From a virus, in the IMG/VR virus record IMGVR_UViG_3300043449_000492, positions 32,001 through 96,000 of that record: a stretch of 64,000 nt of DNA. One strand, written 5' to 3'. Shown here in pieces: positions 24,863-27,547 of this stretch. How positions within the stretch are numbered: position 1 is the first letter of the stretch; each line of letters begins with the position of its first letter. Under the pieces are notes generated by a model, which was given only the letters and a program-made list of their open reading frames with translations, ran no database searches and was not told where the DNA came from. Position numbers and translations under genes: made by a program.

Positions 24863-27547
24863 ATGTTCATTATGCCACCCACAATGCCTATCAAAGTTGT
24901 GGAGCTTTCAACAAATACAAACAATGTTGACTTATATGCAGAATCAGGAAGTCCAGATTTTGCTATAGGAGTGGTGGCTAATGTCTCTGCAACAATCGGA
25001 AGCACATCAACATCAGCAGCTTTGAGAACTAATACAGGCTGGGCTGATGGTTCTTGGCTTTATATTAACAATCTAGGTACGATCAATGGTGGTACTGGCG
25101 CACCTGGTGCAACTGGTTCAACTGGTATCCCTGGTGCAACAGGTGGCACAGGACTTCCAGGAACACCTGGCAATAATGGAACACCCGGCAATACAGGATC
25201 ATCTGGTATCCCTGGTGCAACTGGTGGCACAGGTGCTGCAGGTATCCCTGGTGCAACTGGAAGTACCGGTATCCCTGGTGCAACTGGTGGTACTGGTGCT
25301 GCAGGTATCCCTGGTGCAAGAGGAACTCCAGGTATTCCTGGTGCAACTGGTGGCACAGGTGCTGCAGGTATCCCTGGTGCAACTGGAAGTACCGGTATCC
25401 CTGGTGCAACTGGTGGTACTGGTGCTGCAGGTATCCCTGGTGCAACAGGTTCTCCTGGTACTCCAGGAGCAAGGGGAACCCCAGGTATTCCAGGTGCAAG
25501 AGGATCTACAGGATTAAACGGAATTCCCGGAAATACAGGATCATCTGGTATCCCTGGTGCTGTCGGCATCGGCGGCCTGGGAGGTCAAGGAGGATCAGCA
25601 GCAGGACCACCAACACCATATCTAGGACTTCCTGGGAGAACAGGTCTTGCTGGCAGTCCGGGAACTACTGGAGGATCGGGAACACCCGGAACTAACGCTA
25701 CTCCTGGTGGAACTGGACTTCCGGGCACTACTGGTGGCACAGGACTTCCAGGAGCAACAGGCGGTACTGGACTAGCAGGAACACCTGGTGCAACAGGTGG
25801 CACAGGAATCCCTGGCGCAACTGGTGGAACAGGACTAGCAGGAACACCTGGTGCAACTGGTGGTACTGGACTACCTGGCACTACAGGTGGCACAGGATTA
25901 AACGGAACGCCTGGTGCAACAGGTGGAACAGGACTTCCAGGAGCAACTGGTGGAACAGGATTAGCTGGAACACCAGGAGCAACAGGTGGCACAGGAATCC
26001 CAGGTGCAACAGGCGGAACGGGACTACCTGGTAATACAGGAATCCCTGGCGCAACTGGTGGAACAGGATTAGCTGGAACACCAGGAGCAACAGGTGGCAC
26101 AGGAATCCCAGGAGCAACAGGTGGTGTATCATTACAAGTTGATGCTGTAACCAACTTAATCGTTCTTGTCAAAAATGTAACAGGCACTCTAACAGGCGGC
26201 ACAGGCGGTCTCGGTGGAACCGGCGGTCTCGGAGGCATTGGTGGTCCAGGTGGTATCGGTGGTCAAGGCGGTATCGCAGGTTCTGGAGGTTTAGCAGGAT
26301 TAGGCGGACTTGGTGGCATAGGTGGCATCGGAGGTATTGGTGGTATCGGTGGTCTAGCTGGCATTGGTGGCCCTGGTGGTATTGGTGGCCCCGGTGGCAT
26401 CGGTGGCATCGGCGGTGCAGCTGGACTTGGAGGAATTGGCGGCGCAGCCGGTCTTGGTGGCATCGGAGGTATTGGTGGTCTAGGCGGAATTGGCGGCACA
26501 GGCGGTATTGGTGGCCCTGGTGGTATTGGCGGAATTGGTGGTCTAGCAGGCATCGGAGGCCAAGGAGGCATTGGTGGCCCTGGTGGTATCGGTGGTGCAG
26601 CTGGCCCTGGCGGTCCCGGCGGCATCGGCGGCGCAGCTGGACCTGGTGGTCCAGGTGGCATCGGTGGACTTGGTGGTGGTGGAGGAGGAGGAGGCGGTGG
26701 CGCCTCCACGCAGCAGCTGGCAGGATCAGGTGGTGGCGGAGGTGCGATCTTGGGCGTCGGCGGCGCCCGTGGCGGCCCGCCATCTGCACTTATTAGCCAA
26801 GGTTTCGCAGGAATTCCGGGCACATCGACGGGCGGCGCCGGAGGTCCAGGATTTATTTTTCAACCTTCACCGCTTATAAGAGGCGGTCCCGGAGGTTCAG
26901 GCGGCAATTTAGGAACTCCTGGTTCAGCAGGAATTCCTGGTTCTGGTCCAGGTGTGACAGGTACTACAGGAGGGAATGCAGGACTAGCCGGTAGTTCAGG
27001 TCTTACGGGCCCTACAGGACCATCGGGACTAGCAGGAACACCTGGTGCAACAGGACCATCAGGAATTGCAGGCGCAACAGGATTAGTGTCGGGAACACCG
27101 GGAGCAAGAGGACCTACAGGTACAGCTGGAACACCAGGAGCAACAGGACTAGCAGGAACACCGGGAGCAAGAGGACCTACAGGTACAGCCGGAACACCAG
27201 GAGCAACAGGATCATCAGGAATCGCAGGCGCAACAGGACCATCGGGACTAGCTGGAACACCAGGAGCAACAGGACTAGCTGGAACACCGGGCGCAAGAGG
27301 ACCTTCAGGACTAGCTGGAACACCAGGAGCAACAGGACTAGCAGGAACACCGGGAGCAAGAGGACCTTCAGGACTAGCAGGCCTATCAGGAACACCAGGA
27401 GCAACAGGACCATCGGGACTAGCTGGAACACCAGGAGCAACAGGACTAGCTGGAACACCGGGCGTCAGAGGTAATGCCATCACAGGTAATACAAATATAA
27501 CTTGGATCGGAGGCGACCTCGGAACAATCACAGGACCTGTGGCATAG
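24863..27547 (+). CDS. gp38-like adhesin with four very long Gly-X-Y / Gly-Gly-X strands (superficially collagen-like)
   Basis: AAGGAG RBS. Non-repetitive islands follow the T-even gp38 motif order: '[12 protein letters not shown]', 'GGVSL...[11 protein letters not shown]', poly-G, '[12 protein letters not shown]', 'GGNLG', 'GNAITGN..TW...GTITG'. Confidence 0.75.
25205..25445 (+). repeat. Near-identical direct repeat with 126-nt period (42 codons) inside the first Gly-X-Y strand
   Basis: 25205-25319 and 25331-25445 are almost identical at DNA level. Confidence 0.85.

Follow-up and report, generated by a model that had tools for sequence, protein, structure and literature searches.

The gp38 adhesins determine which hosts the T-even-type phages can infect. 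To our knowledge, the polyglycine-II (PGII) sandwich which they contain is among the rarest protein folds and is known in very short form only, and we know of no PGII helix that comes near 168 residues, those described being far shorter. In an ordinary gp38 a single chain folds into a small beta-helix, two turns of which extend outwards in the direction of the fibre axis and return, as short PGII helices; these helices pack into the sandwich, and its distal loops bind the receptor. In gp38 of phage S16 two turns of the beta-helix, of 18 and 77 residues, form PGII helices 1–2 and 3–10, and helix 3 (GGGGGGGG) is central, consists of glycine only and follows directly after the beta-helix; the authors of the structure single out this 8-residue all-glycine helix as unusually long (PMC6851490). 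The gp38 adhesins are monomeric (PMC12032242; PMC6851490).

Two further groups of proteins share features with the protein described here. The PGII antifreeze proteins of snow flea and springtail (2PNE, 7JJV) are single chains of antiparallel, up-and-down PGII helices with Gly-X-X or Gly-Gly-X repeats and few charges, and our protein with its putative topology can be likened to them; nevertheless, their helices are only about a dozen residues long and form bundles of six or nine, whereas our protein would have four helices of ~168 residues, and we claim no sequence homology. The collagen-like proteins of phages and bacteria (PF01391; for example, in an E. coli O157 prophage, PMC3368898) have in common with it the long Gly-X-Y runs, the match to Pfam Collagen, the location in a tail-fibre cluster and the thin-rod geometry. 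On the contrary, these proteins form homotrimers, have a trimerisation or globular domain next to the repeat and run in one continuous direction, whereas in our protein the tracts are inserted in the turns of a single-chain beta-helix, the chain must return and one of the tracts is Gly-X-Gly.

The protein in question, P0001, is encoded on a stretch of 64,000 nucleotides (the window) from a freshwater T4-like phage with a genome of 169 kb, and its gene sits inside the fibre-gene cluster. The relevant genes are the following:

23593..24849, + strand: upstream fibre protein of 418 aa with PHROG tail-fibre matches, candidate adhesin carrier in the position of gp37
24863..27547, + strand: P0001, whole gene (reading frame and translation), gp38-family adhesin of 894 aa with four expanded Gly-X-Y tracts
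27927..28544, + strand: 2OG-Fe(II) oxygenase (PF13640, Pfam 54 bits) of the prolyl-hydroxylase-type superfamily, two genes downstream of P0001

The reading frame of P0001 is open over its whole length and is preceded by the Shine–Dalgarno sequence GGAG at 24850–24853, 9 nt before the ATG; the gap to the upstream fibre gene is 13 nt. Like gp38, which follows the distal fibre gene in T4-like phages, P0001 lies directly downstream of a fibre gene, in this case a candidate equivalent of gp37. A megablast search with 12 kb against cultured phages gave no match.

With the N-terminal domain of P0001 alone as query, 34 homologues were found, and the complete ones among them are glycine-rich proteins of 240–290 aa which have a C-terminal motif in common with P0001. 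After deletion of the four tracts the remaining core of 268 aa aligns as a single domain (HMM positions 9–255) to a profile built from 14 relatives, with 132.7 bits, whereas 200 shuffled controls all score below 0. The core reaches 75.1 bits against a second profile, built from six relatives of which five exceed the 25-bit cut-off of Pfam GP38 (PF05268). In total, six relatives pass this cut-off, namely P0040 (40.1 bits), P0042 (45.2), P0043 (26.3), P0049 (44.1), P0050 (54.6) and P0035 (34.0), and the last one is a direct match of the N-terminal domain of P0001. Among the open reading frames of the window the family HMMs match P0001 alone. The homology extends over the whole module, that is, the N-terminal domain with the beta-helix, the glycine motifs and the C-terminal strands, and P0001 belongs to the gp38 family and has kept the order of the islands. 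The preliminary description of this DNA had spoken of a telescoped gp38-type adhesin, the core of which would resemble gp38 and the islands of which would follow the gp38 motif order. The end-to-end match of the core and the relatives that pass the Pfam model bear out the first of these claims, and the aligned rungs and C-terminal strands the second; in comparison to the members of 240–290 aa the word telescoped is fitting.

The Pfam GP38 model gives no score with intact P0001, as is expected with four inserts of 168 aa, and has no match in the phage's own genome. Likewise, gp38 was not found when the family profile was run against the PDB sequences; the link came by way of Pfam and of the structure. 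No match was obtained by tblastn of the N-terminal domain against cultured phages or by scans of viral contigs with this domain and with the small relative P0012, and P0042 matched phages only with its docking module of 59 residues. Such N-terminal docking modules are present in P0040, P0042 and P0043 as well as in P0041, P0047 and L007–L010, and are absent from P0001 and from relatives of the P0012 type. A second homologue with long arms was not found in our searches, which included a word-index search with the N-terminal domain at similar lengths.

The gp38 fold itself is seen in a close relative of P0001. The AF2 model of P0012 (pLDDT 75) superposes on gp38 of PP01 with Z 14.2 (2.8 Å over 159 residues) and on gp38 of S16 with Z 13.7 (2.8 Å over 156 residues), the next match overall having Z 8.5; the structural likeness to S16 gp38 suggested earlier is therefore found in the model of this relative. 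In addition, the glycine-rich part of the model aligns to the snow-flea PGII antifreeze protein 2PNE (Z 4.7, 58 residues, 43% identity). In the AF2 model of full-length P0001 only the N-terminal domain folds confidently (pLDDT ~90), and its strand pattern is the same as in P0012. The PDB entry 8zxl (spindle/axial fibril) is a recombinant collagen assembly and not a phage part.

In common with gp38 of the T2/T6/S16/PP01-type Straboviridae (PF05268; 6F45, 9V85), P0001 has an N-terminal domain, beta-helix rungs, glycine motifs alternating with variable loops, and conserved C-terminal strands. The family alignment was made by E-INS-i, and a default MAFFT alignment, which put rung 2 of the family onto tract 1, was discarded. 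P0001 can be divided into the following parts:

24863..25087, + strand: N-terminal domain up to and including beta-helix rung 1 (residues 1–75; sub-HMM 57.4 bits)
25088..25600, + strand: tract 1 (residues 76–246), 57 unbroken Gly-X-Y triplets
25601..25624, + strand: loop region AAGPPTPY (residues 247–254), at the midpoint of the first extension
25625..26128, + strand: tract 2 (residues 255–422), 56 triplets with one Gly to Ala change
26129..26197, + strand: beta-helix rung 2 (residues 423–445), by local, E-INS-i and core-to-HMM alignments
26198..26701, + strand: tract 3 (residues 446–613), 56 Gly-X-Gly triplets with poly-Gly at the end
26702..26971, + strand: NC4 (residues 614–703), short glycine motifs and loops with one conserved 17-residue motif, by core-to-profile and family alignments
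26972..27472, + strand: tract 4 (residues 704–870), ~56 triplets with a one-residue insertion
27473..27547, + strand: C-terminal strands (residues 871–894) and stop, closing the beta-helix (C-terminal sub-HMM 21.0 bits)

Rung 2 of P0001 matches rung 2 of all family members column for column, and the C-terminal strand motif is nearly identical in P0012 and its relatives. Since rung 1, rung 2 and the C-terminal strands align to the family, tracts 1 and 2 on the one hand and tract 3, NC4 and tract 4 on the other hand occupy precisely the two turns of gp38. Tract 1 lies between rung 1 and rung 2, which is the position of the beta5–beta6 extension of S16 gp38, and might be the outward arm corresponding to PGII helix 1, with tract 2 as the return arm corresponding to helix 2. 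The first extension comprises residues 76–422, and its midpoint at residue 249 falls within the loop 247–254, the putative distal turn. Tract 3 comes straight after rung 2, as does the central poly-glycine helix 3 of gp38, and occupies the position of that helix. NC4 would then be a distal mini-sandwich (helices 4–9) with the receptor-binding loops, and tract 4 the return arm that matches the final PGII helix (helix 10). Outside the beta-helix parts, aromatic residues occur in NC4 only, with the exception of Y253, which lies in the loop between tracts 1 and 2. Thus, what is known here is the gp38 family, and what is new is that four of its tiny glycine helices are stretched to ~168 residues each, compared to ~7–15 residues in gp38, in a protein of 894 aa compared to ~250–290 aa. 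The tracts are Gly-X-Y with proline, threonine, isoleucine and leucine, whereas the helices of gp38 are near-pure glycine, and P0001 further differs from gp38 in that it has no recognisable N-terminal docking module and is missed by the Pfam model when intact.

The runs with glycine at every third residue form four tracts of 171, 168, 168 and 167 aa. Four length-matched tracts had been reported in the preliminary description, and the boundaries agree within 2 residues. In tract 2 the register is kept across the Gly to Ala change at residue 279, and tract 4 consists of 13 and 42 triplets with the one-residue insertion at 741–743. Tract 3 is in the register Gly-X-Gly, its Y position being glycine in 48 of 56 triplets, with little proline, so the earlier observation that this tract is Gly-Gly-X rather than Gly-X-Y holds. 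Each tract has a separate tandem unit of 63 bp (7 triplets), of which eight make up the 56 triplets (8 × 7), and on the protein level the autocorrelation peaks at lag 21 in all four tracts. The self-similarity at a shift of 63 bp is 71–77%, whereas the similarity between tracts is 54–66%, and the glycine codon preferences differ; thus, no tract is a recent copy of another. The tracts have expanded independently and not by copying each other, yet with a common period of 21 residues. Acidic residues, lysine and aromatic residues are all absent from the tracts. Proline occurs in tract 1 at Y only, and likewise in tract 2 at Y; in tracts 1, 2 and 4 two of three positions are isoleucine, leucine, proline or threonine, and in tract 3 almost each triplet has isoleucine or leucine.

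The lengths were checked with k-mer contigs from the one public run with the sequence, a freshwater metagenome which is possibly the source sample. These contigs are identical to the window, and a single one bridges 26083–27121 (rung 2, tract 3 and NC4) and confirms the length of tract 3; the contigs break within tracts 1, 2 and 4, the lengths of which are those of the original assembly only. Some contigs had apparent joints across tracts, the sides of which are shorter than 30 letters, and these are repeat artefacts.

We suggest, as a reading which we give close to but not quite an even chance, that P0001 is a receptor-binding adhesin at the tip of the tail fibre, the four equal arms of which pack against each other within the same chain and form a PGII-type bundle that is antiparallel and has the GGX arm buried deepest. 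The helices leaving and re-entering the beta-helix would each have grown to ~56 triplets (8 units of 21 residues); in the first turn these are helices 1 and 2, and in the second turn helix 3 and the last one. The chain would run out-back-out-back, and its four arms would form a stalk of ~50 nm (168 residues × ~0.3 nm) whose far end would hold the short first-hairpin loop together with NC4, a mini-domain of 90 residues with the receptor-binding loops. This hairpin course, which had also been proposed previously, follows from the published gp38 architecture, and as the chain must re-enter the base twice, it would account for the matched arm lengths. The side-by-side packing in a single chain with the GGX arm most buried is what we infer in addition, and the sequence is compatible with a PGII bundle, being Gly-X-Y and, in tract 3, Gly-X-Gly, with glycine at two of three positions as in PGII lattices. 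Probably, the receptor-binding loops are carried on a thin stalk of ~50 nm, of a kind hitherto undescribed.

Co-variation of the tract lengths in homologues had been named as a check. In 25 non-redundant smaller relatives the length of the first extension correlates with that of helix 3 (Pearson 0.73, p 4e-5; Spearman 0.46, permutation p 0.011), as measured with five hand-corrected anchors and with statistics that ignore phylogeny. The two lengths stand at about 2:1 (median ratio 0.44 in the relatives), and P0001 with its ratio of 0.49 is close to this. The outcome is positive and of moderate strength, over a range of lengths that is smaller than in P0001; without P0047 the correlation is weaker (Spearman 0.39, p 0.059).

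A complex prediction with the distal parts of hairpin 1 (209–290) and hairpin 2 (578–739) yielded an ipSAE of 0.18, below the mark, and counts neither for nor against the bundle. Several findings speak against it. The pLDDT is 33–45 throughout the tracts and gives no computational support for any packing. Since isoleucine, leucine, proline and threonine take two of three positions in tracts 1, 2 and 4, the neighbours that each strand can touch are limited. In addition, Pfam Collagen scores the tracts with 63.4 bits (cut-off 27.2), and the matches of the tracts among the PDB sequences are all collagens.

The latter two findings would suit an arrangement in which the gp38 homology and the hairpins are retained and the arms pair between three chains. 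Each trio of parallel tracts would make one collagen triple helix, and the four triple helices, ~48 nm long, would lie next to one another or be folded back in two pairs; we consider this unlikely. Such a trimer requires equal arms as well, and the Gly-X-Y pattern is strict over 56–57 triplets. Proline at Y together with a nearby prolyl-hydroxylase-type oxygenase is a hallmark of collagen, and P0001 has both. Moreover, glycine-rich strands can occupy a clamped collagen helix, which can take in Gly6 strands (PMC13673506), and collagen helices are capable of unexpected lateral packing (PMC11869133). As P0001 is without the docking modules of other gp38-like proteins, a single copy per fibre is not a given. 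Nevertheless, gp38 adhesins are monomers, and although glycine at every third residue and the Pfam match are as in collagens, the flanks of the tracts are all rungs and strands of the single-chain gp38 beta-helix and not a trimerisation domain, nor does P0001 have a further Pfam domain. Charged pairs are wholly absent from the tracts. Host–guest data indicate that sequences with glycine at Y and little proline form the triple helix poorly, and tract 3 would thus be a poor triple-helix former over 168 residues.

It is also rather improbable that the gp38 homology and the topology are correct and the arms do not form one bundle, being PPII-like tethers that are flexible, or else two hairpins of two strands each that stay apart. 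The tip of the adhesin would then hang on loose tentacles, and the equal lengths would result from hairpin closure together with chance or common repeat dynamics. The low AF2 confidence in every tract would agree with this, PGII strands of this length have no known precedent, hairpin closure by itself accounts for the equality of arms 1 and 2 and of arms 3 and 4, and tandem units of 63 bp are prone to slippage. However, the lengths of the four arms differ by no more than 4 residues despite their independent expansion, the arms have the 21-residue period in common, the small relatives have both extensions in one sandwich with co-varying lengths, and the isoleucine or leucine in almost each triplet of tract 3 would be hard to leave exposed.

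Finally, an ordinary trimeric collagen-like tail fibre unrelated to gp38, or equal lengths produced by repeat assembly, is hardly credible: PHROG tail-fibre families with collagen repeats do match the tracts, intact P0001 is not scored by Pfam GP38 and the public contigs break in three tracts, but the core matches the family from end to end far above the shuffled sequences, relatives pass the Pfam cut-off and have the gp38 fold (the claim of no relation to gp38 is already largely refuted), an identical contig bridges tract 3, and four equal in-frame tracts are not expected from misassembly.

Returning to the single-chain bundle, we regard it as possible, with the odds somewhat against it, that one chain builds a four-stranded antiparallel polyglycine-II/polyproline-II rod of ~50 nm which arose from the gp38 sandwich by coordinated growth in steps of 21 residues and which the phage maybe hydroxylates at X-Pro-Gly. 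If this is true, a PGII/PPII strand can grow about twenty-fold in length within a single chain, which would offer a natural template for single-chain nanorods and would connect polyglycine-II lattices with collagen-like sequences. Beside the collagen triple helix and the beta-helical or coiled-coil fibres, there would then be a third route to a thin and stiff protein fibre. The architecture suggests a way in which the receptor-binding loops would reach ~50 nm past the fibre tip, so as to cross a capsule, a sheath or an S-layer, for example. In addition, collagen-like tail fibres in metagenomes may conceal monomeric adhesin folds. The oxygenase encoded two genes downstream has PKHD-type hydroxylases as its best PDB matches (E 3e-3) and is a possible modifier of the X-Pro-Gly sites of P0001.

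The window belongs to the complete 169 kb genome, with terminal repeats, of a T4-like phage, whose neck protein shares about 45% identity with those of pelagiphage Mosig, Stenotrophomonas phage DLP6, and Caulobacter phage Cr30. A freshwater metagenome is the only public run containing the stretch. The following features are considered:

24863–27547, + strand: open reading frame of P0001, open, 894 aa, GGAG ribosome-binding site
20685–21635: 316-aa open reading frame of the same fibre cluster, very Gly-rich, GGGGGG runs, 'TWTVP'-type start
27927–28544: 2OG-Fe(II) oxygenase, PF13640 (54 bits), two genes downstream of the adhesin
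28609–28947: DUF7936 protein (Pfam, 58.8 bits), between the oxygenase and neck protein genes

A 418-aa fibre gene lies 13 nt ahead of the P0001 frame, and both are within a long cluster of fibre-like genes. As the preliminary description had claimed, P0001 contains four length-matched repeat tracts, with glycine at each third position in four long runs:

Tract 1, residues 76–246: 57 triplets without breaks
Tract 2, residues 255–422: 56 triplets, one Gly to Ala exchange, register kept
Tract 3, residues 446–613: 56 triplets in the register Gly-X-Gly
Tract 4, residues 704–870: 13 + 42 triplets, one residue inserted

Each tract has its own 63-bp tandem unit and a 21-residue period is common to all four, so that each corresponds to about eight times seven triplets. 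Self-similarity at a 63-bp shift (71–77%) exceeds the similarity from tract to tract (54–66%) and the preferred glycine codons differ among the tracts; thus the equal length does not stem from a recent duplication of whole tracts. Asp, Glu, Lys, and aromatic residues do not occur among the 674 tract residues, proline in tracts 1 and 2 is confined to the Y position, and in tract 3 Y is glycine in 48 of 56 triplets. In the freshwater run, k-mer contigs identical to the window span rung 2 (residues 423–445), tract 3, and NC4 (residues 614–703, between tracts 3 and 4), but end within tracts 1, 2, and 4, whose lengths are those of the original assembly. In a drinking-water metagenome (run X2), short contigs are identical or nearly identical to NC4 and the start of tract 4 (26719–27069), and many tract matches of 90–95% pass into different Gly-X-Y sequence; P0001 probably has close relatives there.

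The intact protein looks like a plain collagen (Pfam Collagen, 63.4 bits; only collagens among the PDB sequence matches), as both the Pfam GP38 model and the family profile against PDB sequences fail to detect it; PHROG tail-fibre families do match. The non-repetitive 76 N-terminal residues, however, retrieved 34 relatives when all 1.84 billion representatives were scanned with HMMER. The complete ones are glycine-rich, comprise 240–290 aa, and share the C-terminal motif of P0001 (...NAITGN.KITY...GTITGPV). Deleting the four tracts in silico leaves a core of 268 aa, a normal size for a member. Scored against a 14-relative profile from which P0001 had been left out, this core gives a single-domain match of 132.7 bits running from HMM position 9 to the end of the profile, whereas all 200 composition-matched shuffles scored below zero. 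Rung 2 agrees column for column with the second hydrophobic island of the family (local alignment and MAFFT E-INS-i), and a conserved 17-residue stretch of NC4 aligns to the family motif GGxGGNLGxAG. Six relatives score above the 25-bit gathering cut-off of Pfam GP38 in alignments that cover almost the entire model (P0040, 40.1; P0042, 45.2; P0043, 26.3; P0049, 44.1; P0050, 54.6; P0035, 34.0 bits), and P0035 is a direct match of the P0001 N-domain. A second profile, made from six relatives of which five lie above this cut-off, gives the core 75.1 bits. Gp38 clusters also rank first, as a lead only, in a language-model feature search excluding collagen clusters. The family of P0001 is gp38, and the proposed gp38-type membership thus holds.

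Significant PDB matches of the AF2 model of P0012, a small relative (pLDDT 75), are limited to the gp38 adhesins of PP01 and S16 (Foldseek E 2e-5 and 4e-4; VIA-align Z 14.2 with 2.8 Å over 159 residues and Z 13.7 with 2.8 Å over 156 residues), the next VIA-align match having Z 8.5. The Gly-rich part of the model aligns with the polyglycine-II (PGII) antifreeze protein of the snow flea.

The N-terminal docking modules that some gp38-like modules carry come in at least two interchangeable types, one with three 'G[ST]W' (P0040/P0042/P0043, L002–L005) and one with 'MxLPASGAISF...DMNTGHGKS' (P0041/P0047, L007–L010); within L007–L015 the latter type also begins the unrelated tip proteins L011 (533 aa) and L013 (434 aa). 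P0001 and the P0012 type have neither of the two. Modules also occur in tandem, twice in P0044/P0045 (587 aa) and three times behind a signal-peptide-like N-terminus in P0014 (849 aa), or, in P0048 (673 aa), as a fusion following a long N-terminal region of fibre-like character.

S16 gp38 is a monomer according to the authors of its structure and combines an attachment domain with a single-chain beta-helix of five rings; two turns of this helix are extended along the fibre axis as a PGII sandwich (PMC6851490; PMC12032242). The first turn (beta5–beta6, 18 residues) forms PGII helices 1–2 and the second (beta8–beta11, 77 residues) helices 3–10; helix 3 is central and all-Gly, and five distal loops bind the receptor (PMC6851490; PMC12032242). 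As rung 1 (the end of the N-domain, residues 1–75), rung 2, and the C-terminal strands are the beta-helix parts of P0001, the tract blocks correspond to the two turns: tract 1–loop–tract 2 with 347 residues instead of 18, and tract 3–NC4–tract 4 with 425 as against 77. Tract 3, the GGX one, stands at the exact position of helix 3. Since these three anchors are all part of a single compact domain, homology implies that the chain returns at the end of tract 2 and again at the end of tract 4. Such a return would account for arm 1 equalling arm 2 (171/168 residues, loop at the midpoint) and arm 3 equalling arm 4 (168/167). The equality of all four suggests that both hairpins reach one distal tip, like the single sandwich of gp38.

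The coordinated arm lengths expected from the preliminary description receive moderate support. In 25 non-redundant relatives the lengths of the first extension and of helix 3 rise together (Pearson 0.73, p 4e-5; Spearman 0.46, permutation p 0.011; five anchors corrected by eye, phylogeny ignored), and the trend drops to Spearman 0.39 (p 0.059) when P0047 is omitted. The median ratio of helix 3 to first extension is 0.44, compared with 0.49 in P0001. No other long-armed member was found, the longer relatives being tandem double modules (P0044/P0045), fusions (P0048), and the 374-aa P0047 with intermediate arms.

Of the proposed out-back-out-back bundle, the hairpin topology is thus retained by homology to gp38, whereas the packing finds no support in the AF2 model of full P0001, which is confident in the N-domain only (pLDDT 33–45 in all tracts). 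We suggest, with close to an even chance of being right, that the four arms would pack as a single-chain stalk, one antiparallel PGII-type bundle within a monomer. The suggestion rests on membership in the gp38 family, the topology that the anchors force on the chain, the matched arm lengths, the period of 21 residues common to the tracts, and the glycine richness of tract 3. Host–guest data assign Gly-X-Gly triplets a poor triple-helix propensity. The 56 such triplets of P0001 are therefore expected to perform poorly in the main rival, an association of three copies in which collagen triple helices arise from the parallel tracts; in addition gp38 is monomeric and P0001 has no trimerisation element. 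The collagen-like composition, proline at Y with a PF13640 oxygenase gene nearby, and the lack of the docking modules borne by other gp38-likes speak for such a trimer, as does the recent demonstration that Gly6 strands are able to enter a clamped triple helix (PMC13673506); on balance we consider it unlikely. That the arms are loose tethers seems to us improbable to a similar degree, and that P0001 is not a gp38 protein, or is an artefact, hardly credible. In our literature search, no paper reported collagen-like or lengthened PGII strands in a homologue of gp38; should the single-chain rod prove real, its architecture would itself be new.

Every proline of tracts 1 and 2 stands in the context X-Pro-Gly, on which prolyl 4-hydroxylases act, and the best PDB matches of the oxygenase are PKHD-type hydroxylases (E 3e-3). 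Taken together, the phage could encode the hydroxylation of a virion protein. The frame at 20685–21635 falls into no Pfam family and is not matched by the gp38-family HMMs; judged by its sequence it is a second glycine-rich protein of the fibre cluster, unrelated to P0001. Several upstream fibre genes (15494–16990, 17650–20685, 21660–23327, and 23593–24849) have common repeat modules, for example 'SANSYAAAVGV' repeats and 'WANSLSTIDRAIAN', and similar ends, features that suggest a modular, possibly chained fibre system.
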